Below are positions 1-58,555 of a stretch of DNA of 64,000 nt, in pieces (within the stretch, counting starts at the first letter, position 1; every line of letters starts with the position of its first letter). The stretch is taken from positions 9,982,001-10,046,000 of the forward strand of contig OZ076412.1 of NCBI GenBank assembly GCA_964187785.1, written 5' to 3'. The position numbers and the translations under genes were made by a program. The notes below the pieces were generated by a model. It saw nothing but the letters and a program-made list of their open reading frames with translations. It was not told the DNA's origin and did not search any database. The stretch is from Amphiscolops sp. MND2022. Taxonomy: Eukaryota.

Positions 1-481
1 ATCTGTTTTCTTAACCTGCTACGTTAATACTCCGTTTAAAAACCATATTTCTTTGAAGAATTCGAGTTTTCCAAAGAACAATTTTCCTTCTCTTCTAAAA
101 TGACTACTAGAAGCCAGAAAAGAAAAGCTATCGAGGAATTAGTTTCCACTGAAATCGAGACTCCGATACATGAGGCTAACCAAAACCTAAATCCCGTAGC
201 GGGAACGAGCAAATCTCCTAGAATACTCACCGAAAACCTAGAAGAAATTAGATCTTCCCTGAGACGAGAGATAATGTCCGATCTCACTAAAATTCTAGCT
301 GAGAACCAAAAGGAAATGTTAAAACTAATAGCCCCAGTAACTAAAAAACATGCTGAAGCCAGAGCATCCGAAGAAATTGATTCTGATCCCGAGAACATCC
401 CGGAAAATGCGACATCAACACCAATAAAAACCAAAACCACTGCGACTACTCGTAAAATCACACCGGTAAGCAGTCGTAACA
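1..481 (+). repeat. 5' LTR (3' portion only); contains the first ~127 codons of gag
   Basis: Identity to 13491-13971 stops exactly at ...CGTAACA, followed by TGG of the PBS. Confidence 0.93.
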
Positions 482-1512
482 TGGTGACAGGAGTCCTCAA
501 TGACTCAACGAACCTCGGAAAGAAGAAAACACGACCGCATCGCCCACAAAGTTTGCCACCCAACGAACGTCCTTCGACATCACGACTACTCTTCGCTCCC
601 CAACCGGAAATACACCAGCCGCCCCACCTACCCTCAATGCCCAAAGCACTCACTGCATCATTGCCTGTATTCGATGGTAAGTCAGAAAAATTCGAACTTT
701 TCGAGGACTTATTCCGGAACAACATAAAAATGTACCCACATCTAACAGAAATCCAAAAAATCAACTACTTCCACTCGCTACTACGAGGCAATGCACTACA
801 AGCATATTGCAACTTAGACGATGCCAAAAAAGATAACTTAGAGGAGGTAATTACGGCGTTTAAACGGCGCTTCGGAGTTTTTCAATCTTCTGCCAAAGCG
901 AGATGCGAATGGGACTCGCTACATTTTGACCCAACCAAACAAAAATTACATGAATTTTTGGATACACTGCAAAAAACGGCTAAAGAAGCGTTCGGCTCTG
1001 AAGCACAAAAATTTATAGACAAGGCCATATACGCCAAAATGCCGGACCACGTCAAAAAGATTCTTAACCGAGCCTACCTCGAGGACAAACCCTATAATGA
1101 TATTGTCCTACATCTCGAACGAGAGATGCGCCTTAAAGGCCTGGGAACCCCAGACGAAACCACACTAGTACCACTAAATACGGTCGACGTCGTCCCACCG
1201 GAACCAAAAAAGGAACTCACCCATCGAGGAAGTTGCTTCCACTGTGGCAAACAGGGGCATTATAAAGCACAATGCCGCAAATTACGAAAAGATCGTTACT
1301 ACGAAACTAAAGCACAGAACGGTGTCCCCAACACCATTGAACCACCCAAACCAAAGTGTGACACTTGCGGAAAGCTCCACAAAACCGAGAACTGCTGGTA
1401 CGGAGCTAACGCAGCGAATGACCCCAGGAAGAAACGTCACGAATTCACAATCCCCACCAGCCAAATCAGCGAACAACCAATCCCCACTGTTGAAATCCAG
1501 TCAAAAAACTAA
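100..1512 (+). CDS. gag: Gag polyprotein (470 aa)
   Basis: Capsid-like LPVFDGKSEKFELFEDLF region; zinc knuckles CFHCGKQGHYKAQC and CDTCGKLHKTENC; lies immediately upstream of pol. Confidence 0.92.
   Translation: MTTRSQKRKAIEELVSTEIETPIHEANQNLNPVAGTSKSPRILTENLEEIRSSLRREIMSDLTKILAENQKEMLKLIAPVTKKHAEARASEEIDSDPENIPENATSTPIKTKTTATTRKITPVSSRNMVTGVLNDSTNLGKKKTRPHRPQSLPPNERPSTSRLLFAPQPEIHQPPHLPSMPKALTASLPVFDGKSEKFELFEDLFRNNIKMYPHLTEIQKINYFHSLLRGNALQAYCNLDDAKKDNLEEVITAFKRRFGVFQSSAKARCEWDSLHFDPTKQKLHEFLDTLQKTAKEAFGSEAQKFIDKAIYAKMPDHVKKILNRAYLEDKPYNDIVLHLEREMRLKGLGTPDETTLVPLNTVDVVPPEPKKELTHRGSCFHCGKQGHYKAQCRKLRKDRYYETKAQNGVPNTIEPPKPKCDTCGKLHKTENCWYGANAANDPRKKRHEFTIPTSQISEQPIPTVEIQSKN
482..493 (+). promoter_or_regulatory. 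Primer binding site TGGTGACAGGAG (possibly tRNA-Leu type)
   Basis: TGG directly after the LTR-terminal CA; same motif at 20558 and TGGTGCCAGGAG at 17074 (minus strand). tRNA identity is inferred. Confidence 0.8.
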
Positions 1513-1556
1513 AAACGCCGCGCCTCCGCTTCGGGGAAACGGTAGACGCGAGGGCG
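1503..1556 (+). promoter_or_regulatory. Programmed -1 ribosomal frameshift signal
   Basis: Slippery heptamer A AAA AAC (1503-1509) directly before the gag TAA; the -1 frame is open into pol; a GC-rich hairpin (CGCC-GCG..CCG/CGG..CGC..GGCG) follows 6 nt later. Confidence 0.8.
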
Positions 1557-1598
1557 TACACAATAGAAGACCCCCCAAATCGCTACGAAGAAGACTTC

Positions 1599-4500
1599 AT
1601 GACCGAATGCAACGAAGAACCGACACAGGATTGGCAACGTCGTTGGAACGTAGGCATGATACTTAGACACAATGCACGACACCCAGAAGACCCAACACCA
1701 CTACCCCAATGGATAACAGAATCACCCGATAACTACGCGACACTAAAAAGACCCTTACCAGAATCAAAGACAGAACGCATTTACATATATGATAGAGACT
1801 ATAGATGTGATCCCTGGGATGAACCAACCATCTATGACACAAACAAACTCTCTTTTAAGATCCAAGTTTCAAATCCTCAGGCTCAAGTCACCGAGAGTAC
1901 AACCCTACCAACACCTTTGTCACCAATCCTAAAAAAGACAACACAGTCCTCGCCAACACCCGCCACTACCACGTCCACACCAATAGATGCAGAGAACATC
2001 ATCTGCATCGAGGATAAAACAATATGGACACAACAGGCAAACGAACAACGCGGGGTAGATGATCAAACAGTATCACCACCAACAATAGCATCCGAATTGC
2101 CAACTCAGGAAAACAATCATGCAGACGACGAAGTAACGGAATGCCCACAACAACTGCCATATGATCTCAACATCATAAAAGAATTCATACAACATGATAA
2201 AGACGACGACTACATTCCGTTAATGTCGGCAATTACCCTCAAAAAGAAGAAAAGAATGCTCTTTATTCCTCTCGACTTTGAAAACACTAGAATTGATGCA
2301 TTAGTCGACTCGGGAGCCTACATCAACGTCATCAGTGAAAGAGATGCAGACAAGATACAAACTGAAGCCAACGCAACCATAATCGCGAAAGCACCTCCAC
2401 CCCCTTTCAAGATACAATATGCCAACACAGAACTCGAAAAAGCCCGTGCAACATACACAATGCAATTCAAAATCGGGGACTACGCGTTCGAAGAAACTTT
2501 CATCATCATGACCAAAACATCTTACCCAATCATTGGCCTGGCATTCCTCCGGAAGCATTCCGCAATCCTAGACACTGCACAAGGAACAATAGACTTTCCT
2601 AAAATACAAATCACTCTAGCCCTAAAAGATGAAAGACAAAAGTGCAACCCCAAACCCATCACTATCAAGACGGAAGAAAAACACACCATACCAGCCCAAG
2701 CCACGCGGATCATCCACGCTTCCATCACCACAAGCAATGACCACTCAATAACTGGGACAGTCCAACCTTTGCCACAGTTCGACGAAAATGCAAAACTCAT
2801 AGTAGCCCCAGCAATAACAACAGCCCGAGACAAACGAGTCGCGATAAAAATAGCGAACACCACAGACTTCCCCTATACAGTAACGCCACATACGAAACTA
2901 GCAGAATTACAAATACTGAAACCCGAAGAAACGAAATTGATACGAGCAGTAGACATAGCAGCCCTCAATCTACTCACCGAACACGACGATGTTGTTGCGT
3001 ACGTTAATGCACTGATGCAAGTTGATTCGTCAGAACAAACAGAAGAGAAATTCTGGTTCCCAACTCCCGAAAATCCCGGAGATGAATCGGAACACACACC
3101 CATCCAACAACGCATTCTACGAGAACTACGCGAACTACAAAGATTAGAAGAACTGGACCCCAAACAAGACGAAAAATCCACAACACAATTCCTCTCGCTA
3201 TTCAAATGGAATGATTCACTAATAACGGGAGAAGAACGTGAAAACCTAGAGTCCACCCTAGTCGAATTCAATGACATTTTTGCACGTCACCGACTGGACA
3301 TCGGAATGAACAACCAGTTCAAGGTATGCCTAACTCCCAAAAACGACAAACCGGTATATACACAGAGTCTCCTCGTACCCATCAACCTCAAAGACGACCT
3401 CACAGTAGAATTGGCACTGATGCACAAATACGGGATCATCACAACCCTCCCATTCTCGAAATATGACAGCCCCATCTTCGCGCAACGCAAACCCAACGGC
3501 AAACTACGGCTCCTAGTGGACTTACGGAAGATCAACGCCCTCATCTCAGATGACTACATAAACAACAACCACCCCATCAGCACCCTCTCAGATGCCGCAC
3601 AACACCTAGCGGGGAAGCAGCTGTTCTGCAAACTAGATTGCTCACAAGCCTATCACTGCCTCCAAATGGCAGATCAAAGGTCAGTAGAACTCCTTGCATT
3701 TAATTTTGCTAGTAGAACGTTTGCCTATCGTAGGCTAGCCCAAGGACTTAGTAGAGCCTTGTCAGCCTTTTCGAGCTTCATGCGGGAATACCTTGACACC
3801 GTCATCAAAGCAGACCAGTGTGCCCAATATGTGGACGACATTGGAATCGCCGCCAACACAACGGAACAACTCATTAAGAACATAAGAGCAGTCTTCAAAT
3901 GCATCCGCAAGGCAGGACTAAAACTCACAATTGAAAAATGCCACTTCGGTGTCACCCAAATCGAATTCCTGGGAAGAACCATCACACCCCACGGAGTAGC
4001 ACCGCAAGACCACAAAATCATCAGTTTCTTGTCAAAAATCAGATTTCCCCGGTCAAAGAAACAAGTCCAGAAATACATTGGATTCATCAACTACTACAGA
4101 AACTACATACCAAGACTGTCCGAAAAAATGATTGGAATGTACGAACTCCTAAAAGCAGATGCCAAAATCACCATATCAGAAGAATTAGTCGACAACTTCA
4201 AAGCCATCAACGCAAGCCTAGCGGAAGCATGTGGGCTAGCCCTCAGACAACCAGTTGCGGGAAAACAATACGTACTAATGACGGACGCAAGCTTCCGGGC
4301 ATCAGGTTATGCCCTAATGATAGAAGAAAACGACGATAAAAAGCTACTCTCCAAACGGAAAACTTTCGCACCGGTCGCTTTTGGTTCCTGTGTATTCTCG
4401 CCGTCACAGCTGAAAATGTCATTATACTGTAAGGAGTTCCTTGCCATCTACCACGCATTCCTAGAGTACAGCCACATCTTATGGGAAACGACGCTACCAA

Positions 4501-6719
4501 CCCTAGTTTTAACGGACAATAGATCGGTAACAAGGTTTTTCCAAACAAAGACAACGCCACCTGCGCTCTGGAATGCTTGTGACTACGTACTACAATTCAA
4601 ATTCCGTATCATGCACGTAGCAGGGTCACAAAACACAGCTGCCGATTTCCTGTCTCGCCTAGAATTAACGCCAAAAGAAAAAGTTCAGCTCAAGCTACGA
4701 GACGACATTATAACGGCACCCATTGAAATCAACCTACAGTCCACAGATGTTGCCGATGAGGAACAACTTTTTTTCCTACCAGATGAGGAAGAAGAATCAG
4801 AACAGGAAGTTCTTGCAAGAAAAACCCTTAGCAAACAACGAGCAATAGACGAAACAGAACAGCGAAATCTATCCACCGAAATAACAGAAGCAGTCCACAT
4901 ACCGCTCAACACAGCAGTCTACGCATTCGGAGCAATCAAGGAAAACGCACGAATACGCAACGAACAGGATGCCGATCCAATCCTGAAAGCACTAAAGCTC
5001 CGCCTACTCCACGAAGAATACGACAAACACCTCCTCAAAACTGAACCTAGAGGACGAAACCTCCTGCGCCATGAAGAGAGAATAATAGTCAAAGACGGAG
5101 TCCTCATGCGCAAATATTACGGAGAGGACGGCACGGTCACGCATCACCAAATCTTCATACCGAAACACATAGTCCCTGAACTCCTATCAACACTGCACGG
5201 AAAAACCAACAAACACCCTGGCATAACAAAGATGATTCAAGAAAGCCGAACAAAATACTACTACCCGGGACTTGCACGGAAAATTAGAGCCTGGGTAATC
5301 AACTGCCCTGATTGCATAGCCAACAAACGAATAGACTCGCGACAAATACGTCCAAAAATGCTGAGCAATACAGAATTCACATTTGGACCAGAAGATTGTC
5401 TAGAAGTCGATATTTTACCCAACTTACCCTCATCGAATGGTTACAAACACATCATAACAATGATGGACGTGTTCTCCCGCTACCTCTTCGCATATCCTAC
5501 ACAAGACATGACCGCCAGAACGGTAGGCCGATGTATAATCGACGTAATGACGCGCCACTGCTACTTACCTACAGTCATTCTCACTGACAAAGGATCACAA
5601 TTCCGATCAGATGTAGTAAATCAAATTGCACAGACACTTGACATCCGGATCAGCCACGCGTCAACAAAGCATGCACAAACAATCGGCATACTCGAAAGAA
5701 CGCATGCATCTCTAAAGACTTCCCTCAAGATATCAACGGGAGAACGCCGTTCAATGTGGCACAAATACGTACAAATTGCAGTCATGAATTACAACACTAG
5801 CTACCACGAGAGCCTAGGATGTGAACCAACAGCCGTATTTCACGGACGCATCCCGTACAACATTCTGGACATCAAGCTGGGACTCAAGCCAGAATGGAAA
5901 AAAGACGCCAACGAAGACCTAACGGACGAACTACAAAAACAAATAGCTGAAATCCATCAATCAGCAAAGGACAACCTTATGCAATCATATTTGAAATATA
6001 AGCGATATTACGATAAAAAAGCGACAGCAACGCCATTGAAAGTCAATGACTATTGCTACGTCCTGAATCCGAAGGCTGATAACCAGTCAATGAAATTCGC
6101 TTTCAAAGATTGCATTTGGACAGGACCATACATAGTGGTCAAAGTCCTTTCCAATAACAATTACGTCGTAAGACGAACGGGAACAAGATACACGCAAACT
6201 CTCCATAGAATTCGCCTAAGGCTATATGCGCCCAATCAACGAGTACCTGACGTAACAGTCAAAGTGGAAGATCAACTTCCAGATCCCGAGGTTAAAACAA
6301 CCCATGATGATTGGTACGCGCAAGCTTGGGAAACCGAATTCGGAGAAGTTCTGTTCGGGAACGCCACGGAAAAAGAAAATAACGAAGCTACCATTATAGA
6401 AGTGCCAACTGAAGACGGAGATACAACGGAGCGAGAACCAGTTATAACAACTGCGAACGAAAAGTCAACGGAAGAAAAAACTTACTCTGGAAATAACACG
6501 TCATTCAATTTGGACGTCAGCGATAATCCCTACATAACAACCCCACCGCCTATGGAAAGCCCCCCAATACCGCCTACAATACCACCTATAGTTGTTGGAT
6601 ATAATCCGAGAAAAACAGGAAGATACAACTTACGGCCTAATCCTAAACCTAACGCGCATCCTGACTTCCGGATGCTCGACGCAATCGTCACGGAAGAAAG
6701 CTCTCAAGCCTCAAACTAG
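1599..6719 (+). CDS. pol: Pol polyprotein (protease, dUTPase-like spacer, RT, RNase H, integrase), uninterrupted
   Basis: LVDSGA at 2307; YVDD at 3828; MTDAS..DNR..ADFLSR (RNase H); H-x6-H..CPDC zinc finger; EVDIL..TDKGSQF..GILER (integrase DDE). Confidence 0.97.
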   Translation: MTECNEEPTQDWQRRWNVGMILRHNARHPEDPTPLPQWITESPDNYATLKRPLPESKTERIYIYDRDYRCDPWDEPTIYDTNKLSFKIQVSNPQAQVTESTTLPTPLSPILKKTTQSSPTPATTTSTPIDAENIICIEDKTIWTQQANEQRGVDDQTVSPPTIASELPTQENNHADDEVTECPQQLPYDLNIIKEFIQHDKDDDYIPLMSAITLKKKKRMLFIPLDFENTRIDALVDSGAYINVISERDADKIQTEANATIIAKAPPPPFKIQYANTELEKARATYTMQFKIGDYAFEETFIIMTKTSYPIIGLAFLRKHSAILDTAQGTIDFPKIQITLALKDERQKCNPKPITIKTEEKHTIPAQATRIIHASITTSNDHSITGTVQPLPQFDENAKLIVAPAITTARDKRVAIKIANTTDFPYTVTPHTKLAELQILKPEETKLIRAVDIAALNLLTEHDDVVAYVNALMQVDSSEQTEEKFWFPTPENPGDESEHTPIQQRILRELRELQRLEELDPKQDEKSTTQFLSLFKWNDSLITGEERENLESTLVEFNDIFARHRLDIGMNNQFKVCLTPKNDKPVYTQSLLVPINLKDDLTVELALMHKYGIITTLPFSKYDSPIFAQRKPNGKLRLLVDLRKINALISDDYINNNHPISTLSDAAQHLAGKQLFCKLDCSQAYHCLQMADQRSVELLAFNFASRTFAYRRLAQGLSRALSAFSSFMREYLDTVIKADQCAQYVDDIGIAANTTEQLIKNIRAVFKCIRKAGLKLTIEKCHFGVTQIEFLGRTITPHGVAPQDHKIISFLSKIRFPRSKKQVQKYIGFINYYRNYIPRLSEKMIGMYELLKADAKITISEELVDNFKAINASLAEACGLALRQPVAGKQYVLMTDASFRASGYALMIEENDDKKLLSKRKTFAPVAFGSCVFSPSQLKMSLYCKEFLAIYHAFLEYSHILWETTLPTLVLTDNRSVTRFFQTKTTPPALWNACDYVLQFKFRIMHVAGSQNTAADFLSRLELTPKEKVQLKLRDDIITAPIEINLQSTDVADEEQLFFLPDEEEESEQEVLARKTLSKQRAIDETEQRNLSTEITEAVHIPLNTAVYAFGAIKENARIRNEQDADPILKALKLRLLHEEYDKHLLKTEPRGRNLLRHEERIIVKDGVLMRKYYGEDGTVTHHQIFIPKHIVPELLSTLHGKTNKHPGITKMIQESRTKYYYPGLARKIRAWVINCPDCIANKRIDSRQIRPKMLSNTEFTFGPEDCLEVDILPNLPSSNGYKHIITMMDVFSRYLFAYPTQDMTARTVGRCIIDVMTRHCYLPTVILTDKGSQFRSDVVNQIAQTLDIRISHASTKHAQTIGILERTHASLKTSLKISTGERRSMWHKYVQIAVMNYNTSYHESLGCEPTAVFHGRIPYNILDIKLGLKPEWKKDANEDLTDELQKQIAEIHQSAKDNLMQSYLKYKRYYDKKATATPLKVNDYCYVLNPKADNQSMKFAFKDCIWTGPYIVVKVLSNNNYVVRRTGTRYTQTLHRIRLRLYAPNQRVPDVTVKVEDQLPDPEVKTTHDDWYAQAWETEFGEVLFGNATEKENNEATIIEVPTEDGDTTEREPVITTANEKSTEEKTYSGNNTSFNLDVSDNPYITTPPPMESPPIPPTIPPIVVGYNPRKTGRYNLRPNPKPNAHPDFRMLDAIVTEESSQASN

Positions 6720-6979
6720 ATAAAAACAAATAACGAACCAAACCGAACCGGAATGGCAACGTCAATTTTTCTCTCCACTAAAATAATCACTACGGAACAA
6801 ACTAAATAAAATAGATATAGAATACTGGCCAAAGAAAACAAGAAAAATAACAATAGATACATAAAGTTATTTCGGAAGACCACACAGGGCTTCTTTATTC
6901 TATGACGAACATCAGGATCTTCGTTCGCCTTTGTCTTGCTCCCTTTAGACTTCTTCGAAGCACTCTCGCTGCCACTTTT

Positions 6980-9900
6980 TTAAATCACGGCCACATCTGC
7001 ACTCACAACGCTCTTCTTTGACTTCGAACCACCAGTAACTGTTCCCACCGCCGTGCCTTGTCCGCGGATCTCCACTGCCTTCTTGCCTTTCACAGCAGAA
7101 CTAGAAGTACTGCCAGTATCACTGACGACTGATCCTTGTCTCGAACGTGCCTCACGGTTAGCCTTGTTCAGCCCAATATAATAGATCTCACAGGATTTCC
7201 GACGCTCCAATAAAAAATCACGATATAGCGATCTATAACGAGTGATGAACGCATCCAGATCCTCTCCGCATATGCCACGCCACAAATCAAAATCAGCTGC
7301 AACATAGAAAGCTCCAGCATTTGCGATAGCCTCCCGTACTACATCCAGAGTACGATCCACAAAGAAAGTTTTGTGAGCATAACCCCAACTGAGTACATAC
7401 GACTGAACTAACAGCAAACAATCACGAACAATCGCCGTACTAAAGGCACAACCACTCAAGTCGAGCGTCACAACAGGGGGAACAGCTTCGGGCACCCCAA
7501 TCACCAAACAACAGAGCTTGAACACACGAAAGAGATGCACTCGAGCCTGGAAACTAAAATCCCGGATAAGGTACCGGATAACATCCGGAATGTCACTTGC
7601 AGCATGTTTTTCACCCGCGTGTTGTCTCCGCTTCTCAATGATGTAACTGTGGTACTCCTCCACTGCAGCTGCCGACTCGTCCGCCTTCAACACTCCACAG
7701 GATTTCAACAGATCACACAAAGACGCAAACAACCCAAACACAGTGTGGTCATCGCCCTCTAGCATAATCTCAGGGCAAAAACTGTAGAGACCCTGAGATA
7801 GTTTCAAAGTTACAGCCATGTTCCGCAACAAAACCACCACCAGATGATCCAGGAAAGAACGACACTTTGAGCGAAAATCGCGAACCTCACTTGTCTTCCC
7901 TGCAGCCAGCTCTTTCCCATAGGCATAGTTTGCAGGGAATTCCTCGATTGGCACTGCTGCAAAAGAACTCAGTTTGCTCTCGTCCATATACGACTCCCAA
8001 TCGTGAATCCCAGGAAGATCAGAAGAACTACGGGTCTTTAACAGCAGGCAGTAAACAAAGTTGCAGATCTCACCATAACTGTGAAACCCGTAATCAGCCC
8101 GGCCCTGTCGCAGCTTCTCGAAGTTGAAATCAACCAAAACACCCACGATATATCAGAAATTGGAATACAATAGAAACCTCAGTCGGAATCAAGACGATAG
8201 ATCTATTTTTACTCTCAATCTGTACAATCAGAAAACATAATACAAAACAAAAACAAAAGACCATACTTACAAAGATCGAGCACCTGACGGAGTAATCCGA
8301 ACCGATAAACCATAAGGTTATCAGAGATTATCTCAAAATCAGTGCCCTTCAGCTAAAAAGCAACAACCAGTTAACCTACACAGTTCAACCACTGAAGACG
8401 ACAGAGATGTACAAAACCAAAGAAAAAAAAACAACAACAATAACCCACCCTGTCCATAACGTCTTTCAGGTGGGGATGACCAGTATATCGAATATACGGA
8501 CGAATGGAAGGCCACAGTTCTATGAGGTCCGTCAGCACAGCGCGGAGATCACTGAAGTCAACGGAACCTGCGCGTACTGCCTTCTTTAGAATTGGTTTGT
8601 CCTCCACCCAATCCTCATGCACGACACTTTTCAATCGGAGGACCACATATTCCACCGCAGTCATCACTTCCAGCATTCCAAAAATGTCCTGGTGCGCTTG
8701 GCGAAAACACTGCATAAACATGTCCTCATTGAATCGTTGCACCTGTAGAAACTCCCGACCATCGCCACGATTGTCGCCAAGAACGCGGAGTAAAGACGGG
8801 CTACCACCCACAATTGACACCGGTAACTGCTGTGAACCAACACTACTAACAACACGTGCCAAGGGAACAAGCTCCGCGTCCGGAACCGGAAGATCCAGTG
8901 ACTGACATCCCACACAGACTTTCTTTAAGTAGTTGCCCTCCAACAGAGCACGTAGCACCGCTCTTCAATCGTCGTCCTCTCATACTGAATGGCATACTCC
9001 TTAAAGCTCGCAATGCTCTTTAGTGTCAAACGCAAGACCCGCGGCGCAAGGCCCTGACACAAAAAAGACTAAAACACACAAGAACAATATCATAACGGCG
9101 CCACCTAACAACCTACAAAAAATACATATATATATCACACTACCAACCACAGTCTCTGACCGACTCCAACCCAAAGCGTACTGAGGTGCTTGCGTCTCCA
9201 AAGTAGCACGGAAATGACCCCACAGGCGCCGCAGCAACGTATAATCACCTCCACTACTCAGAAGATCGCAGAAGCGTGACACCAGGGTCATAAATGGCAC
9301 TCGAGACGTCACTTGGGCATGTTTGGGCACTCGATCTTCCGGGAATGGAAAGCCCTCCGCAAAGTCTACGAAAGCACGAGCATTGAAATTGGCTAACTGG
9401 TTGGCGGACAGGACCATGGGCTCCATTAAACGATTCAACACAGGAAGCCCCATGTGGACACGATACGTGACATCACGAAACCAATGACCATCACTCCGGA
9501 AATGCCGCGCAAACTCACCAGCTCCTTGCGCTTTCATTCCAACGTCCCGATGACACACGCGACAAAAGAAAAATTTTTCGGAGCCACACTTGGAGCCAGA
9601 TACGAAGACTTCATAGGCAGGATTTAGAGTCAGCATATCACGCCGCAACCGGTTCCGGCTGCTGTACTTCTTCACCTTCTTCACGCTACTCAATCGCTCT
9701 TCCATCCTTGCAGCAAGATCTTGGAGACCTACAACACCAAACAAACCCTCAGCGGAAAACAAAATAGACATACTGACGACGAACTCATGACAGCATTTCA
9801 GGACAATATAACAAAAATACCCCACCCAAAATTATAAACAAAAGTATACGTACCGTTCTGAATAGTTTGTGAGGCTCTAGTTCTAACTTCATCCACAAGC

Positions 9901-10853
9901 TGTCTTCTCAACAGAGCCACATCCTGAGGGCTTAACGCTAACCCACCGGGACCACTCAGGGGATCTTCCTCTTGACCTAAAACATCAACCCCCTGGCTAA
10001 AACCTGACGAATAAAATACAAGATCACCCTCCCTTCCCCAGTTTGAACATAAAAATACCTCACAATTAACCCAAATAACGACCCTACCCAAAATATATAA
10101 ATAATACTAACTACTCAAAGGATTAGCTGCAACGGTACCCGGAGGAGGAGACGACGAAGAATCCCTTGAATTCCGACTGCGTTTGCTGGGGGTCACGATT
10201 TTCACGGAAGTCTTCCGTGACCTGCTCAGTTTTGAACCTACAACAATCACACCCCCTTTTTGACTCACCCGTATACAACGCGGAAAACGTCCCCAACAAA
10301 TAACAACAAAACTGCCAAGTAACCTTTCAGAACTCCGGGGCGGGGATCAGCCTCACCTTCGTGAGACTCTTCGCTAGTGTCCAAACGTTGTTGTGAGTCA
10401 GCTATTAACCCAGAAAGCCCAGGTCCACTAACTCCAACTGCAGTGCCACCCGGATCTGCGGCGGAACAACTGACTGCTTCAGTCGTTGGAAGGTCAAACT
10501 CTGAGACTTTAGACAACACTGTAGTCAGCATCTCGCTAACAGTAAGCAATGGAGCCGTCGACAAAACGGAAGACACAGGTGGCAGTTTGGAAAAGGACTC
10601 AGGTAACCCTCCGTCACCCCCAAAGGAAGAACTGGCCGGGACAGTCCCGGGAACAACAGAGGAGGAAGCAGGTTGAGTTACTGAAAATCAAGATCTGGTT
10701 TGACGCGTCAGAGTTACGGGTAAGACTGGAAAAGGCTGATCACCAAAACAACAGTCCAATTACCCAAGTGAGTCAGAAAGATTTTTACCAACCTGGAACA
10801 TGACACACAGGATCGCCTTCTGAATGCAGAACATCATCGTCGTCCTTATCCAT
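6980..10853 (-). pseudogene. Antisense multi-exon gene resembling a hAT transposase without recognisable catalytic residues; this copy has frameshifts
   Basis: ATG at 10853; GT-AG introns at 10792-10681, 9147-9069 and 8270-8220 (others probable); Zn finger CRVC..H..SDGH; WSRSETV|SFLCQGLAP; LIELWPSIRPY; FRSKCRSFL..L; covers ORF-track ORFs 10265-10576, 9798-10091, 9001-9825, 8371-8958 and 6980-8146. Confidence 0.65.
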
Positions 10854-11009
10854 AAGTAGAAAGAATCTGAAACAAAAAAATTACAATCAAAAGTGAACAA
10901 AGAAAAGAAAAATGACGGAGCTACCCCGGAATAATAATGTCATGAGAAGAACTAAATCCAGAAAAATCAAGGAGGAAAACCTAAAAGAAAAAAGGCATTT
11001 TCAAAATCA

Positions 11010-11167
11010 TGACGTCACGCGAATTATTCCCAGAAAAGGAATTGATGACGTCATGATGTAGCTCAAAATTGGAAACTCATTTCACGGTTCAGCCAATCAC
11101 AGCGCAGATGGAAACGAAACGCTTCCGAAGAAAAACGAACTTGAATAAAAGAAAAATAACAGCCAAT
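11010..11167. promoter_or_regulatory. Putative bidirectional internal promoter
   Basis: TGACGTCA (CRE) at 11010 and 11046; AGCCAAT at 11091 and 11161; sits between the divergent ATGs at 10853(-) and 11268(+). Confidence 0.55.
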
Positions 11168-11267
11168 AGGAATGCAGGAAAAACACGAACGAAAAGAGAG
11201 TTGACCTCTACATTTGCCGCATTCTAAACGTAAAGATAAGTCAGTTTGTAATAATCTCAAATTCAAA

Positions 11268-12002
11268 ATGAGCAACTACGACTTGGTTATTGACATCTCT
11301 TCCGACGAAGAAGAACGAGATAACGGCGTACGACAAAGTACCCCCATTAAAGTACTCCCGCTTAACGTGATAACAACGTTGGATCTTTCCGGATCTTCGT
11401 TGGAAGCTACAAAAGGCAGCACGGAGGAGATGATGTCGTCCGTTAACGACCTCAACTTATCAGACATCTCCGCTTCTACCTTTGAAACAATCGGCACTCC
11501 GAAGAAGATCACATTTAGTACCGCAAGCCCTGGAGAGGAATTCATAGTAGAAAACCAAAGTGCAATTTCGTCCGACGAAAGTTATTTCGAAGAGCCGGAC
11601 ACTCCCCGTCAGTTGCCCCCACTACAGCATGCACCTGTTTTACGAGACGTGACGAACAAAGAGCTCCCGTACAACGGACCGCCCCCGAAAATTGACAGAC
11701 TCGACGACTTAACGGAACCGTCAGTAGAAGAGGTCGAAAACGCCTATGGCATAGATCTACAAAGCAGCCGAGAGTACAGCCCGTTGTGCGGACGGGGAAC
11801 GCGCTATACTTCTACAAAACTGGCAAGAGCACGAAAACAACCAGTACTGATCACCAGAGAGATTCCCCATTGCCCCAGACCGTGGTCAACAGGCTATAGA
11901 GGCGCCCTGTCACGACCCGCTCCCGGTCGGGACTTCACTTGCTGTGGAGGAATACCGCAATTCACGCGAGGAAAAGGACACGGCAGAGCTACACAACATT
12001 GA
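11268..12002 (+). CDS. Extra sense ORF of unknown function (S/T/E/P-rich, probably disordered)
   Basis: First ATG (AAAATGAGC) inside ORF 11214-12002; no transmembrane segment or signal peptide; 3' end may be frameshifted. Confidence 0.55.
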   Translation: MSNYDLVIDISSDEEERDNGVRQSTPIKVLPLNVITTLDLSGSSLEATKGSTEEMMSSVNDLNLSDISASTFETIGTPKKITFSTASPGEEFIVENQSAISSDESYFEEPDTPRQLPPLQHAPVLRDVTNKELPYNGPPPKIDRLDDLTEPSVEEVENAYGIDLQSSREYSPLCGRGTRYTSTKLARARKQPVLITREIPHCPRPWSTGYRGALSRPAPGRDFTCCGGIPQFTRGKGHGRATQH

Positions 12003-13490
12003 GTAAACTCTATTTAATGCCTTACCTTTTATCCAAACAGTAGCACGAATTAAGTTTAACGGAAGCTCAACGTAAATTATTCAAAAATGATTTAGACAAA
12101 AAGAAAACTTCCGGTTTAATGATTTCACATGCAATCGTTTCATCACTTCCGGTTTCGACTGATGAAAATTCCATGCCAATCTAAATACTAAAAAGGAAAC
12201 ATTCCTAACACTGGGATCAATTTTTCTTTTCTCCACACTAAAATGAAAACACTAAAACAATATTTAATTCCGTGATCCCAACGGAACGCATACGATCTAA
12301 AATGAAAAGAACATAGAAATAGTTTAGTACAGTTGTTTCCAAAACCAGAAGTAGTCGTAAAAAGCCACTCAAATCACAGTCAAGTAATTTGAATAAACTT
12401 TTACAAAGCTATGGCAGCGTCACTCAAATAAACAAGCTAATAGTATTCCTAATTTTACGGACCAATAGCGTCACAGCTAAAAGCCGGTATGTTTGCGCTC
12501 AAGCTAGTAAGGACCATCCTAGTGACGTCATTAAGAATTTAAAGATGGCGAATTACTCCGCTTTAGCTCCACTAGCAGTTAAGAAAGTTATAGCTAATCT
12601 TAATACGTACGGAGCGCTTACGGGGCAAATTGTAAATCGACGAAGTTATACCTAATGTTAATACATGTAAGACGACAATGGAAAAACCTAAAACCTGGGA
12701 ACTACTCTAATACATCAAAACATTCTTAAGAAAATGTAGAATTACATCAGAATGCCTAAAACGTCACTATGTCTAATTATTACCTCTCCGAACCTTTTCC
12801 GTTTTAGTGATTGATTAAAAAGTTCGTGCTGTTAATTAGGATAAAAGTGAATCCTTACAAAAGGGTGCTTCTTCCTATTCTGTAGAAGAATATTTTGTGT
12901 ATTAATTACGTTGTAGAAACGTTGCTTTCGTGCATATGCTATTTAATTGTTGCATTTGTCAGTGTTAACTGACTCAATTCATGTAAAGTTAGATAGATTA
13001 TTGTTGGTTGTTTTCTGATTTACAATAATCAGGTTTTTTAGTTCGTATTCATCACTTTTCCAGCATCATTTGTTCCTTCTCAAATATCTCAGTTTATCAA
13101 TCCAAAATTCGCCCGAGATATCTCCGTAACAAATTTCGCTTGTCATTCTTTTATCGCAAGCTGAAAGTTTGCCACTCGTAAAGTGAATCATCGTTCATGC
13201 CCGCGTGCTTTCCGCGATAAAGTTTCAACTAGACATTTGTTTTGCCGCCTTTTTCCGCGATCAAACCGGAAATGATGTTAATGAACAAAAATGATTTCAA
13301 CAAGTACTCCGTAAGGGAACCGTGACTAGGAATTTTAAATCATGAACAATTAATAAAAGGGTTGAAATAATAAGGATGATTAAGCCTTTTTGTTGAACAA
13401 AACCGATTTTAAGGATTCCTAGGAATTTTTAGGTGAGGAACAAATGATGCTGTGAAAGTATATATACCTAGGGATTTGTAAAATAAGTGA

Positions 13491-13971
13491 ATCTGTTTTC
13501 TTAACCTGCTACGTTAATACTCCGTTTAAAAACCATATTTCTTTGAAGAATTCGAGTTTTCCAAAGAACAATTTTCCTTCTCTTCTAAAATGACTACTAG
13601 AAGCCAGAAAAGAAAAACTATCGAGGAATTAGTTTCCACTGAAATCGAGACTCCGATACCTGAGGCTAACCAAAACCTAAATCCCGTAGCGGGAACGAGC
13701 AAATCTCCTAGAATACTCACCGAAAACCTAGAAGAAATTAGATCTTCCCTGAGAAGAGAGATAATGTCCGATCTCACTAAAATTCTAGCTGAGAACCAAA
13801 AGGAAATGTTAAAACTAATAGCCCCAGTAACTAAAAAACATGCTGAAGCCAGAGCATCCGAAGAAACTGATTCTGATCCCGAGAACATCCCGGAAAATGC
13901 GACATCAACACCAATAGAAACCAAAACCACTGCGACTACTCGTAAAATCACACCGGTAAGCAGTCGTAACA
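13491..13971 (+). repeat. 3' LTR (minimum extent; true start upstream, candidate TGTAA at 12631)
   Basis: About 99% identical to 1-481; followed by unrelated GGCAT... instead of a PBS. Confidence 0.93.
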
Positions 13972-19346: not shown

Positions 19347-22300
19347 TGTGACTTTTGTTAACCCCAATTTCACTTAGTTACCATTTTGTGCTAATGACCA
19401 TGCGGCATTATACGGTTTGAGCATTATCGCATTCTCACCATTATGCGTTTTTATCAAGTTCACTATGCGGCATCCTACGTTTGGATGTGTGACGAGTAAT
19501 CGTCATTTAATGTCACAACACTATACGTCACCCTGCGGTTCGAAAAGTGACGTATACTCGTCACTATGCCTTTTCAGCAGTGTCAGCTATAAAAGATCAG
19601 TATTATTAGAGCGATCAAAATCGCGTTCAAAGTAATCATTTTGTACGATGTAATTTATTGATGTCTAGGGTCCTAGCGCTCTATATTTCTTGAGATATAA
19701 ATAGTATGACGTTTTTGACGTAATTCTCTTTTTGAAAATCCTAGTATGACTCCCACAAAAAAGAGCGTCATGGTCTTCTTTTTTCCTGGATTAGCAGAGC
19801 AGTAAATAACGAGATTCAGTTGGAATACATTCTTCATAACGCTCAGTTTTGCAAAATTGATCCCCAAACCAGCTTTGTTAAGGCAGTCTATTCACCAATT
19901 GTTCCATCTCTTTTCTTTTGAATTTGAAAGTACAACAGCATGATTCAAATCTTTTACCCACCAAAACATCATTTTCAACTAAAAAAAATGGACAACAAGA
20001 GAAACAGAAGGTCAAGGAGACTAGAAACACCATCTCCAGAGAGAGAATTAGAGAGAACGCAAGTAGATACGTCTGTTAAAGGTAATGAGACTTTAACTAA
20101 TTTTATTACGATTGTTCAAGAAAACCTAGGTGAAAAAAACTCTGAAAATTAGTTGAATGAACCCAGTCAGCTCAGTAGTGAAATCCAAGTATGGCCACAA
20201 TTTATGGAACGAAAGAATGATGATAAAATTGAACGAATGAGAGAAGAAATGGACAATAAACTAGAGGCTATCTTGAGGAGAGAAGTTAAGTCTAACAAAA
20301 CTACATCAACAGTAACAAGCCCAAGATCGGAAATCAATGAAACACAAGATCCACAACAGTCGGGATCCAAAACCAATAAGTCTATTGGAGTTGGCGCATC
20401 TAATATTGAAAACACAGATTCAGAAAACGACGATTATCCCCCAAGAGCTTCAAAACTGAAAGACTTGAAACATCCTGCAAAACCATTATTTCAAAACGAA
20501 TCCGATGAGATGTATCTATACTTTCAAACGAAGAACCCGAGGTAGAGGATTATCACATGGTGACAGGAGCCAATCGACAAATCCATAGACAAAATTCCCA
20601 AAACCCAAACAATACAATAGGATCCCACGTAGACCAAACAAAATCTGTTGAATCCGCCAACAAGACCACTCGATCCAGTCAATCAGATTGCACTAGAAAT
20701 TGACAAACTGGAAAACAAAAATTCCCCACAATCATTATTTCATCCCAAAATTACGCTCACTTTCAATGGAAAAAACGAGAAGAAGGAGAAATTTGATTAT
20801 TTTGAAGACCCGTTTCACAAAACACTTCGAATGCAACCAAACCTAACAGAGGACATGAAGATTAACCATTTTCACGGACAGCTCAGGTGTTTGCCACTCA
20901 AGACATTCAAAAACATACAGAGAACTCCAACCACTACATTAGAAGACATTCTCAAAGTCTTCAGACGAAAATATGTAAAACTGGAATCCAGTGCATCAGC
21001 AAAGCACAGATTCAATAGACTCGCATTTGATACGGAAAATCAAAAACTTCCAGATTTCTTAGAAGAACTCCAAGAGAGCGCTGAGAAAGCGTTTAGGGAG
21101 AACACATAACAAATGATAGAAAATCTACTCTACGCCAAAATGCCACCCCACCTCAAAAAGTCCATTAATCAAGCCTACATTGAAAATGGAACCTATGGCC
21201 AAATAGTCAAACATCTCGAAAAAGAGATGGACTTGAACGATTTGGAAGCTGACCAACCTTTAGTAAAAACACAGATGACGGTCACTAAAAAAGAACAAAA
21301 CGCTAAAAAAACCACCAAAAAACAACAAAATGAAAAAAACCAAAACACAAACGACAAAAACAGTACCAAACAAAACCCTCAAAAATGACCACTGCCGTTA
21401 CAGCAAAGAGACAGTTCACATGATGGCCGACTGTCCCAAATTGGCCAAACGGCGCAAACTTGAAGAAGATCCAGACGACGAAAATCGCCAAAATTGCAAC
21501 ACACCCGGCCATGAAGTAGAAAATTGTTACTTCGGCGCGAATATGGAAAATCGTCCACCTAAATGGACCCTCACCAAAGCCCAGAAAAAGGTTATTGAAA
21601 ACTATAGACAAGCCAAAAAAACCAATAAAACCAAAAATAGAACTACAACAACAATCCTCTTCCAAGGATTTAAACTAGAAACGCACGCCCTTATACAAAA
21701 TCTCCACAGGAACAAAACTCAGCAGATGACTGGCAGCATCAACTTAACCCAAAACCTACAAAAACCAACAATTTGCGAAACTAAATCAACAACACAAAAC
21801 TCTCAACAATCAACACTGGAAACTCAACCTGAAGACTTATACGAACTCTTACATGATGTTCCAGACAACTACTTCCCACAAGAACCAACCCACCCTGAAA
21901 CCGACTCAAACTCAGTTATCCAACACACAACAAAACACCACGTAACAAAAAGAAAGTCTTGCAATGATTAAAAAGAACCCCTTTTAGATGAAGATCTCAC
22001 CGAATACATACAATTTGACAAGGAACGAAGCTTCTCATATCTCCCAATCTCATTGTCCTTTACATTAAAGCGAAAACGCCACATGTATTACATACCGATG
22101 GACTTCGGAAAACTCAATGAGGATGGTCTTATTGATACCGGAGCGCTTACAAGCGCAATCTCTGACCAAGACCTCAATAAGGTGAAGCTGTTGGCAAACG
22201 AAGCCATTACAGAAACTGGTCCTCCAACAAACTTCCAAATTATGGTGGCGAATGGACAACTAGAAGTCCCTATTGGTACTGTACTACTAGAATTTGAAGC

Positions 22301-25300
22301 TAAAGGCTAATTTTGGCTGATTTCATGTTAAAGGAAAACTTCATCATCATGAAAACTCTACCAAACCCGCTAATCGAATTGTGTTTCCTTCGCAGAAATA
22401 ACGCCATTTTTGATGTCACTCAAGGCATCTTAACTTTTCCCTATCTCTCAATGCAACTCAAACCCGACACCCAAACATCGAAACGACAAGCAACACCATT
22501 GTTTGCTGAAAATACCTACACTTTACAACCAGGCGAAACTCTCGCCATTGCAAGCAAAATGCCCCATCTGATGGACCATAACGCAACTGAAATAGTCACC
22601 CCATCACAACAATATGAAAACCTTGATAGCATGTTCATCACTGCACCACTCAGTACTGTCAACAACGATGCTATCGGATATCAAATCATCAACGTTTTCG
22701 AACTACCATACACAATCACAATGGACACCCATCTAGCGGATTTCAAAATATTAACCCCAGAACAATTCAAATATATACAACCAGTAGACACAGCATTACT
22801 ATCTTTTATGAGACAACATGAGTAAAGAACAGAAGTCTAGATAAATGAACTTCTCAAAGTACCACATCAAAATTCAGAGCAGGAAACATACTGGTTTACC
22901 ACTGAAGAACCAGGTGATCCCGCAACATATACTCCATTTCAGCAACGTGTCTACAATGTGCTTCTCGGACTGAAAGAATTCGAATGGCCCAACAAAACGC
23001 TCAGCCCAGACGAACGACAAGAAATTAAAGAGATCCTCATTGAATTCCACGATCTTTTTGCCAGACATCGTTTCGATATAGGCATAAACCGTGAATTCAA
23101 GGTGAAACTAACGCCGAATGAGGACAGACCTGCTTACAGTTAAAATCTGCCGACTCCTATCAACCTCAAAGATGATATCACAGTAGAACTCGCACTTCTA
23201 CACAAGTACGGCATCATTACAACTTTACCTCTTCGCCAAATGTGCAAGCCCAATTTTTGCGCAACGTAAACCCAATGGGCGCTTCAGACTTTTAGTAGAC
23301 CTCACGAAGATTACTAACCTCATCACTGAATATTACACCAATAACAACCACCCGTAAGCACTTCATCGGATGCAGCCCAACACATGGCAGGGAAAAGAAC
23401 ATTTCTGCATATTGGATTACTCACAGGCTTACCACTGCCTTCCGATGGCAGATTACCAATTCCTTCAGATGCTCGTTTTCAATTTTGCAAGTAGAAGATT
23501 TGCTTATCGTAGCCTTGCTCAAGGTCTCAGCCGATCTTTTTCTGCGTTTTCAAGCTCTATGAGAGAGTACCTAAATAGAGCAATTAAAGCAGACCAAAAT
23601 GGCCAATATGTCGACGACATTGTTATAGCGGCAAATTACGCAAAACAATTGTGTGTAAATGTCAAATCTGTCTTTGAATGCATACGCAATGCAGGATTAA
23701 AACTCTCCATGTCAAAATGCCACTTGGAGTCAAACAAGTCGACTTTCTGAGACGCACAATAACACCAAACGGAATCACACCTCAACCCGACAAAGTGAAA
23801 ACTTCCTCTCAAAACTTCGCTATCCCAAGTCAAAAAAGGCGTTATAGAGGTATATTGACTTTTCAAACTATTACCGAAATTACATACCACGCTTTTCGGC
23901 TCTCTCCGTTCTTCAAACTCCTCAAAAAACCTCCAATTTCTACGTACGAACAAATTTGGTAGAAGCCTTCACAAACCTCAACAAACTCCTAGAAATTTTC
24001 TGCCAGTTAGTTTTAAAACAACCACTGAAAAACAAGCAACTCATAGTAATGTCCGATGCAAGTTTCACAGCAGCAGGATATGCTATCATGATCGAAGACG
24101 ACCCGAACCAGAAACTTCAGTCCAAACGAAAAACATATGCACCAATAGTATTTGGTTGAAAAACATTTAATCCAACACAGACAAAAATCTCAATTTGTGC
24201 AAAGGAATTTCTTTCCATATACTTTGCATTTGTCGAATTCGGACACCTCATGTGGGGTAGTACCTTCCCAGTAAACGTGTTCACAATTAATCGTTTTGTA
24301 ACCCAATTTTTCCAAACGAAAATTTTCCCTCCAGCACTCTGGAATGCCTGCGATTATGTCTTTCAATACAGTTTCGTGCTCGCCCATGTTGCCGGATCAA
24401 TGAACACCGCTGCCAACTTCTTATCTGTAACGGAAGTTGATCCAACCCAAAAACTGGAAATGGCCAATCGTAATGATGTTCACTGGAAAGCGATTGAAAT
24501 GAACATTCAATCATCTGGCATTGTCGAAGAAGAACAAATTTATGTTCTACCAGATGACGAAATTCATGAAAATCAATTATTTGAAGAAAAACAAAACATA
24601 AGGAATCAAGCGCCAACCGATACACACAATGACCCAGAAAACACTGTTTCTGAACTACAACAATTTCGCAAACCACATTAAGACTGATCTCCTGCTTATA
24701 GCGCGCGGATCGGCCTTGAGCAGAACAATGACATATTCCTTAGAAACTTGAGAGAAAAAATCGAAGGAAACCCAGTTGACGAAAATGAACTCGCATCAGA
24801 ATATAGATACCAGCACTACTTACAAAACAACGCGAATAGAGATAAAACAGGAAGTTCTCACACGCAAATACTACACGGACACCGGAACCATATCTCACCA
24901 CCAAATTCTTCTACCAATCCAACTCCTAGAAGAATTTCTTCAGGCCCTCCATGGTCAAGGAGGAGCTAGAAATCCTATCTCCAGAGAGAGAATTAGAGAG
25001 AACGCAAGTAGATACGTTTGGTACAGGTAATGAGACTTTAACTAATTTTATTGCGGTTGTTCAAGAAAACTTAGGTGAAAATAACTCGGAAGATCAGTTG
25101 ACTGAACCCAGTCTGCTCAGTAATGAAATCCAAGTATGGACACAAATTATGCAACGAAAGAATGATGATAAAATTTAAAGAATGAGAGAAGAAATGGACA
25201 ATAAACTAGAGGCTATGTTGAGAGAAGATAAGTTTTACAAAACTATATCAACAGTAACAAACCCAAGATCGGAAATCAATGAATCACAAGATCCACAACC

Positions 25301-25500
25301 GTCGGGATCCAAAACAAATAAGTCTATTGGAGTTCGCGCATCTAATATTGAAAACTCAGATTCAGAAAACGACGATTATCCTCTAAGAGCTTCAAAAATG
25401 AAAGACTTGAAACATCCTGCAAAACAATTATTTCAAAACGAATCCGATATAGATGTATCTATACTTTCAAACAAAGAACCCAAAGTAGAGGATTATCACA
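19347..25500 (+). mobile_element. Degenerate Ty3/gypsy element with internal deletion removing most of integrase and the 5' part of the 3' LTR
   Basis: 5' LTR 19347-20557 (TGTGA..TCACA); PBS TGGTGACAGGAG; fragmented gag/PR (IDTGA)/RT (YVDD)/RH (MSDAS); partial 3' LTR ~24955-25500; flanks GTAAT/GTTAT (probable TSD with one mismatch). Confidence 0.88.
19988..24950 (+). pseudogene. gag-pol pseudogene of element 2
   Basis: Many stops and frameshifts, but collinear with the intact gag-pol at 100-6719; slippery T TTA AAC before TAG at 21669-21678. Confidence 0.9.
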
Positions 25501-57923: not shown

Positions 57924-58555
57924 CTGAAAAATCAGTTCACTGTCATTTCACCCCACATTCAATTCACCTCATGGTCGTATCACCCCACATTCATTTCACC
58001 CCATGGTCGTATCACCCCACAGTCATTTTACCCTAAGGTCGTATCACCTCACATTCATTTCGACCCACATTCTTTTCACCCCACGTTCATTTCACCCCAC
58101 ATCATTTCACCCCACATTCATTTCACACCACATTCATTTCACGCCACATTCATTTCACCAGAAACTATTTCACCCCATTTTCATTTCATTTTATGTTCAT
58201 TTCGTCCCATGTTTATTTCACCCCGAATTCATTTCAGTCCAAGTTCATTTCACCCTACATCATCAGATTAATCACTACTGTCACACAATTTAAAGCTTAG
58301 CGCCAAAAGAAGAGCGTCTTGAATGTAATTAGCAATTAGATAATCAAACTAAGATAATCAAATAAGATAATGCTATCATATTACCAGACGGTCAAACTAC
58401 CAGACGGTCAAATTACCAGACGGTTAAAACAAATACCAGTTGAATTAGTTCCATTTGATTTTATCACTAAAATGATTTCAGTGCTTTCAGAATCGAAAGT
58501 GTCGCAATAATTAGTTAATGATGAAACTCATGTGAAGAAAGGGACCATTTACTAG

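Follow-up and report, generated by a model that had tools for sequence, protein, structure and literature searches.

We identified the antisense gene of a Ty3/Gypsy retrotransposon, located at the start of the window (the whole 64,000-nucleotide stretch analysed here), as a relative of hAT transposases. The gene has lost its catalytic residues, is under purifying selection, sits at a fixed position and, as judged by tree comparison, is exchanged between elements. We consider its product to be a dead, hAT-derived accessory protein, with a probability of about 0.9. For its role, our analysis gives slightly less than even odds to a non-cutting, DNA-binding regulator that would keep its own element transcribed despite host silencing.

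The carrier element and its antisense gene

Positions 7400-9000 of the window lie in a full-length Ty3/Gypsy element, inside which the window starts. Its LTR pair, a direct repeat of 2073 nt, is 98.8% identical and has TG...CA ends; the TSD is 5 bp long. The two LTRs and the TSD, together with gag and a pol ordered PR-RT-RH-INT, identify the carrier as a Ty3/Gypsy LTR retrotransposon. Between pol and the 3' LTR are found the antisense gene and a short sense ORF3. The features, in window positions, are the following:

1..481, plus strand: 3' part of the 5' LTR; the LTR starts about 1590 nt before the window, and gag starts inside it
40..1512, plus strand: gag ORF (weak matches to Retrotrans_gag and zf-CCHC)
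1494..6719, plus strand: pol ORF, PR-RT-RH-INT, 1741 aa, open
6886 (about)..8133, minus strand: exon 8; predicted helical insertion domain, C-terminal catalytic helix in remodelled form, and a basic tail of low complexity
8271..8352, minus strand: exon 7, 82 nt
8449..9068, minus strand: exon 6; RNase H-like core (predicted) and the first part of the insertion domain, with a 1-nt frameshift near 8942 in the window copy
9148..9728, minus strand: exon 5; encodes the C2H2 (BED-like) zinc finger (9564-9484), followed by a segment that aligns with the part of hAT proteins just ahead of the catalytic core
9854..9976, minus strand: exon 4, predicted
10112..10237, minus strand: exon 3, predicted
10324..10680, minus strand: exon 2, predicted; Ser/Pro-rich, low complexity
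10669..10796, no strand: intron 1, a conserved non-coding island with 89-99% identity among 12 clade-1 elements that have divergent flanking exons
10793..10853, minus strand: exon 1, predicted, with a predicted ATG
10860..11260, no strand: predicted divergent promoter region of the antisense gene and ORF3 (putative function; TGACGTCA and CCAAT motif counts made without a shuffle control)
11268..12002, plus strand: ORF3, 244 aa, acidic, extending into the 3' LTR; dN/dS 0.13-0.16
11908..13971, plus strand: 3' LTR, with the TSD directly after it

Several observations accompany this layout. The gag frame starts within the LTR, and the 3' LTR thus repeats about 140 gag codons (window 1-481 and 13491-13971). 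Just past the pol stop, a short AAACCGAACCGG block at 6735-6765 is kept in 12 aligned elements and marks where the exchanged cassette has one of its borders. All 14 clade 1-2 copies of ORF3 that were read carry an N-terminal (L/I)IDISS-acidic motif, which we take to resemble a SUMO-interacting motif; in clade 3 a different-looking ORF occupies this place. The GACGCGTCA core of intron 1 also occurs in clade 2 and in one of three clade-3 elements, and the conservation of the island suggests that it is probably a cis element. A likeness of the island ends to the TIR of the resident hAT family was considered and rejected, as it is probably forced by splice signals (alifold structure only). Further along, window 20000-25500 holds a second, decayed pol-like stretch between two partial direct repeats (23478-23725 is 71% identical to 3699-3946). 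Dispersed GCAAGATCTT-rich repeats in both orientations, with several short palindromic MITE-like units, occupy 35443-62045, and a 16-nt tandem array lies at 57932-58263.

The antisense gene is predicted to have eight exons and seven introns, with GT/AG borders conserved in an alignment of diverged copies. Positions 7400-9000 cover part of exons 6-8, that is three exons and two introns. The stretch 8211-8146 was considered as coding sequence with a frameshift and rejected, being an intron in every aligned subfamily. In clade 3 (L144-L154), whose Pol is about 51-54% identical over long matches, exons 5-8 form one frame of 820-927 codons. By sequence comparison, three introns were either gained in clades 1-2 or lost in clade 3.

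The window copy is a decayed pseudogene copy of a domesticated gene, in which fixed replacement and later decay are both present. Three defects break it: the reading frame shifts near 8942, the splice acceptor at 8135-8134 is non-canonical, and a stop codon comes too early, at 6982-6980. The sequence-only reading had described amino-acid replacements across an otherwise readable frame. This fails for the window copy, with its introns, frameshift, bad acceptor and stop, and stands at the level of the family: exons 5-8 are open in nine of 19 close copies, the other ten having a break or an unread gap. These 19 copies are what is left of 23 matches at 95% identity or more once four partial ones are excluded. 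Given that the catalytic replacements are shared while the breaks differ between copies, the replacements are old and the breaks recent and private.

Homology to hAT transposases and loss of the catalytic residues

Neither Pfam, nor a PDB sequence search, nor the ESM Atlas gave a match for the exons of the antisense gene, and an initial homolog search with exon 8 found none. A DDE-bearing seed from the same genome led to 93 full-length reference relatives, numbered here after P0157. All of them have D283, D349, C380, H383, R438 and W439, and 92 have E717. No hAT family of Pfam matched any of 31 DDE-intact relatives scanned (0/31). Hermes was not recovered by the reference profile at the sequence level, only by a fold search, in which the P0157 model (pLDDT 86) matched it with a Foldseek E of 2.7e-9 (Z 23.1, rmsd 3.5, 405 aligned).

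Compared with the 93-reference profile, the exon 8 profile reaches a probability of 98% (E 1.9e-13) and the zinc finger an E of 1.7e-4. Exon 6 alone is weak (E 0.002; score 31 against a maximum of 26 in 60 shuffles). Exons 5, 6 and 8 of 29 elements taken together give an E of 5.5e-14 over 492 columns, with a score of 122, where 40 column shuffles reached at most 27. Moreover, the natural single-exon proteins of clade 3, for which no exon joining is needed, independently match the reference with a probability of 96% (E 5.5e-9, 501 columns) and belong to the same family as the exon-split gene (E 1e-29). When exon 6 was modelled from 28 sequences of the family and no others (pLDDT 80), helices and strands followed the order seen in the reference. 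The three best Foldseek matches of this model are Hermes, but with an E of only 0.011-0.014, and in a wide fold search Hermes ranks eighth (Z 5.4), tied with other RNase H-like folds (actin/Hsp70-like). Residues 1-184 of this model span Hermes 152-345; structure matches are given here as ranges and not as residue pairs, the inferred mapping to D180, D248 and E572 passing through the invariant residues of the reference.

On these profile and fold comparisons, the antisense-gene protein is homologous to hAT transposases, at about 13% identity to the DDE-intact relatives. The zinc finger survives, as had been claimed from the sequence, and lies at 9564-9484, outside 7400-9000. Its C-x2-C-x16-H-x5-H pattern has no Pfam BED match, 'BED-like' referring to spacing and position, and its ligands are retained in 33-36 of 37 copies, the remainder being mostly alignment gaps. 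The divergent homolog P0083 and two further homologs, P0145 and P0138, perhaps from other species, have best matches of 29-41% in this genome; a metagenome scan with P0083 gave no confirmed locus.

At the catalytic positions, the window copy reads as follows:

8979..8981, minus strand: Glu codon at the first catalytic Asp column, aligned with D283 of P0157
8806..8811, minus strand: Val-Gly where the second catalytic Asp would be, with the register uncertain by one
8722..8733, minus strand: F-N-E-D replacing CxxH; C380 is matched by F 8733 and H383 by D 8724
8554..8556, minus strand: Phe codon where the conserved Trp of the RW motif would stand in the gap-free register; hhalign favours another Trp 18 codons earlier
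7478..7480, minus strand: Pro codon at the catalytic Glu column, reference E717

The sequence-only reading had placed YAIQYERT at the first Asp, SIVGGSPS at the second, FNEDMF at the CxxH region and IGVPEAVPP in place of the C-terminal motif, and the profile alignments bear out all four. The Glu codon (8981-8979) falls on the invariant D283 column. At the second position hhalign places G (8808-8806) on D349 and the register of the sequence-only reading places V (8811-8809), with Asp in neither. F and D occupy the C380 and H383 columns, and P (7480-7478) the E717 column. An SHG.A or ERGFS-like motif is absent from the 150 best database relatives, except for one partial pattern match. The Arg of the RW motif (Hermes W319) is lost in either register, and its Trp column reads F in 37/37 (gap-free) or W in 37/37 (hhalign).

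These substitutions are not private to the window copy. All 19 close copies have them (18/19 for the Glu column), which is the sharing by other copies that had been proposed as a check. Across clades 1-2 the canonical residue is retained in 0/35 at the first Asp, 0/36 at the second, 0/37 at Cys, 0/37 at His and 0/35 at Glu. The second column is G in 36/36 or, in the other register, any of eight different residues without D. The Cys column reads F 36 and I 1, the His column E 26, D 9, R 1 and V 1, and the Glu column P 13, Y 7, L 4, M 4, F 4, S 2 and H 1, with two gaps. Among 11 clade-3 elements, the second column has G in nine and N in two (one D in the other register), CxxH is found in 0/11, and the third catalytic column is not acidic in the motifs displayed. 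An intact D/D/E at other positions, the result named as one that would overturn the claim, is not conserved in any of the core columns tested.

Could the protein still be an enzyme, with a cryptic nuclease or other activity that uses relocated acidic residues? The first column over the 37 elements of clades 1-2 (E 29, V 4, L 1, A 1, two gaps) is Glu in 29 of the 35 copies read, the CxxH His column is Asp or Glu in 35/37, an Asp at exon 6 residue 103 is invariant (37/37), and the Asp of the one clade-3 copy at the second position, in the alternative register, points the same way. Such acidic residues are nonetheless not a property of the family. The conservative D-to-E change belongs to the window type, with V, L, A, K, R or Q in other types; in clade 3 the first column is R in nine and Q in two, and residue 103 is D in only 5/11. 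Glu as a family-wide substitute for the first Asp was rejected on these counts. Moreover, a Pro-containing stretch stands in place of the Glu helix. In Hermes, substitutions of E572 abolish every step and changes of D180 or D248 affect activity (PMC2533014), and in Kat1 a CxxH mutant blocks hairpin formation (PMC4763223). We regard a cryptic enzyme as very unlikely.

Another possible function connects the protein to the DNA transposons of the host, as a dominant-negative brake on hAT elements that would benefit the host and so the carrier. In its favour, this genome has a resident DDE-bearing hAT-like family (L073/L074, L076-L079) with CAGGG termini and TIRs. Of four distinct insertions of this family, three have a TSD of 5 bp and one a TSD of 6 bp, and internal deletions mark the copies seen. 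Against this, about 13% identity to DDE-intact relatives is too low for mixed oligomers or shared ends to be expected, and the TIR of the resident family is not enriched in the window. We give this explanation very little weight. A 5-bp TSD defines hAT5 (PMC12730594), and the TSD length of the member of the FDE/MDGPNVN/SHG.A.VE.GFS group in this genome hints that the donor of the antisense gene may have been a hAT5 member.

Purifying selection, exchange and possible roles

Estimated with IQ-TREE (GY+F3X4), dN/dS of the antisense gene is 0.076 over 24 elements. Exon 5, with the zinc finger, has the lowest value (0.051), followed by exon 6 (0.078) and exon 8 (0.087). In the same 12 elements the gene has 0.062 against 0.018 for pol, and the clade-3 genes (n=8) have 0.064. 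Pairwise NG86 gave 0.05-0.22 in 15 of 20 comparisons; four were saturated, and values from pairs with saturated dS are not taken as estimates of dN/dS, while one near-identical pair is uninformative (0.45, interval 0-2). In young elements, with LTRs at least 99.7% identical, pol and exons 5, 6 and 8 are open (for example e010, e016, e032, e042 and e088). The whole core of about 760 residues is constrained.

Alternatively, the gene could be a nested hAT insertion that is carried along and decays neutrally, as the broken window copy and the breaks or gaps in ten of the close copies might suggest. Neutral dN/dS across copies, the second result that would have counted against the sequence-only reading, was not found: values of 0.06-0.08 persist while dS between types is saturated. 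The gene occupies the identical position in 71/71 loci examined, from three clades, and the breaks vary by copy whereas the catalytic replacements are shared. No TIRs or TSD bound it either, the 25 longest of 45 inverted pairs including no convincing terminal pair. Neutral decay is therefore highly improbable, and the earlier proposal of a change of function over random decay agrees with the shared substitutions, the low dN/dS and the conserved splice sites. The more specific form of that proposal, a protein that would only bind DNA or oligomerise, is tentative.

A search with exon 6 gave at least 150 scored matches at 62-100% identity among 6001 candidates. The loci fetched by the gene all adjoin pol in the same arrangement (20/20, 20/20 and 11/11), with Pol identity down to about 52%. 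Conversely, elements chosen by RT, for a 167-residue piece identical to that of the window, all have the gene (20/20); these 20 carry five gene types that are 49-59% alike and 52-56% identical to the window type. This presence in 20/20 RT-selected elements, together with dN/dS of 0.06-0.08, is in keeping with an antisense additional ORF (aORF-3R), to which an antisense promoter of its own, here predicted from promoter-like motifs, would also belong. At least nine gene types, alike at 49-77%, are found on elements with RT at 99-100% identity. Between e010 and L088, pol has a dS of 0.05 and the antisense gene a dS of about 2.4 (dN 0.39). The trees of pol and of the gene are mutually incompatible in AU tests (p 0.0007 and 0.0001), and between elements identity falls just past the pol stop and rises again near the predicted promoter. 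As read from these comparisons, the antisense gene is exchanged between elements. Part of the type diversity could reflect a sweep of gag-pol through older lineages, pol being mosaic as well.

We suggest that a hAT-type transposase gene was acquired by an ancestor of this clade and came to lie antisense in the interval between pol and the 3' LTR. The protein lacks D-D-E and CxxH and keeps its finger and predicted fold under purifying selection. An internal divergent promoter may transcribe the antisense gene (and ORF3), the transcript being spliced; the introns would survive copying, being on the strand opposite the genomic RNA. The finger would bind a motif in the element and counter silencing, and many old types may persist by recognising different sites or by escaping different host silencers. 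We propose the anti-silencing step because transposases have a precedent as activators of their own elements: they are sequence-specific activators, the Mutator transposase alone activating cognate copies, and domesticated transposases repeatedly lose DDE (10.64898/2026.08.24.746577). Some observations do not favour this regulator. Constraint across the whole core exceeds the needs of a regulator that uses only its finger. No binding site varying with the protein type was found, the intron-1 island being common to divergent types. A strict match of protein to LTR is contradicted by e088, in which a divergent gene (56-64% identical) is paired with an ORF3 and LTR much like those of the window type. 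Moreover, the window copy transposed (it has a TSD) but its gene is now broken, so that nothing in this copy points to a need for the gene in cis.

The dead transposase might instead be a protein-interaction scaffold, blocking a host defence factor or excluding competing elements, with its types held by frequency-dependent selection. The many types on a near-identical RT would fit such a role, as would constraint beyond the finger and the exchange of the gene in e088 independently of ORF3 and LTR. The zinc finger exon is, however, the most conserved part of the gene, and one gag-pol sweeping older lineages could also yield the diversity of types. We consider a scaffold unlikely, if worth keeping in mind.

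Less probable still is an accessory role in integration, in which the protein would bind cDNA ends or target chromatin and guide or import the integrase complex. Transposases in general bind both the ends of an element and its target DNA, the basic tail might serve as a nuclear signal, and the LTR termini are conserved across clades. On the other hand, an antisense message from a separate promoter would be uncoupled from particle assembly, the protein types differ widely while integrase is almost unchanged, and an informal look at the flanks of fetched elements revealed no evident target preference.

Known systems and wider meaning

Antisense additional ORFs between pol and the 3' LTR have been described in plant and fungal Ty3/Gypsy elements, including Retand (TRP28/PF04195), maize Grande (gene23), rice RIRE2 and Boty, and their origin is described as unknown, resembling no other TE (PMC7264820; PMC11963269). 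Gene23 of Grande is a nuclear protein made from its own antisense promoter (PMC7264820). The gene described here is comparable to these ORFs in position, orientation, presence in most copies, conservation and probable own promoter (here predicted). Unlike them, it has a recognisable donor, a near-full-length hAT transposase. It also lacks the PF04195 match of TRP28 and has seven predicted introns, whereas the word 'intron' is absent from the text of the Retand paper. With hAT transposases (Hermes and the FDE/MDGPNVN/SHG.A.VE.GFS group) it has in common a collinear finger and C-terminal region and, as predicted, the RNase H-like core and helical insertion; it differs from them in the loss of D-D-E and CxxH, the lack of TIRs or a TSD, the low identity and its residence in a class I element.

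DAYSLEEPER is a catalytically dead transposase domesticated by its host. So are MUSTANG and FAR1/FHY3 (10.64898/2026.08.24.746577). These resemble our case in that catalytic residues were lost and DNA-binding parts kept under purifying selection, but here the new owner is a mobile element present in at least hundreds of copies, as opposed to a single host locus. Element-encoded regulators or anti-silencing factors are known in VANC of VANDAL and TnpA of Spm (10.64898/2026.08.24.746577; PMC13547354). They too are transposon accessory genes, and the DNA-binding domain of TnpA is also transposase-derived; they belong to DNA transposons and act on their own ends, whereas here a class II protein, of putative activity, is found in a class I element. 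In animals, LTR retrotransposons of bdelloid rotifers have captured ORF3 enzymes, GDSL and DEDDy (PMC5408684), likewise modular extra ORFs shared between lineages. Those are catalytically intact, and 'transposase' does not appear in the text of that paper. The literature that we searched, with subscription papers, Repbase and supplements outside its scope, contained no report of a hAT- or transposase-derived ORF in an LTR element.

A broader picture, which we offer tentatively and consider possible rather than probable, is that the clade domesticated a DNA-transposon enzyme as a sequence-specific counter-defence factor. The gene for this factor would be a swappable cassette with many ancient alleles, in the manner of the accessory-gene hotspots of phages. 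Together with ORF3, which is SUMO-interaction-like and lies on the far side of one promoter, the gene might form a two-gene anti-silencing module in an animal, and its core may have gained introns inside a retroelement.

For the antisense extra ORFs of LTR retrotransposons, reviews treat both origin and function as open questions (PMC7264820; PMC11963269). In this case the donor is identifiable and the catalytic loss can be mapped residue by residue, in a gene family that is invisible to Pfam together with its DDE-intact relatives. There are many young elements with open frames and differing types on almost the same gag-pol, and natural types can thus be compared for function. Transposase domestication would then reach beyond host genes to co-option between elements of classes I and II.
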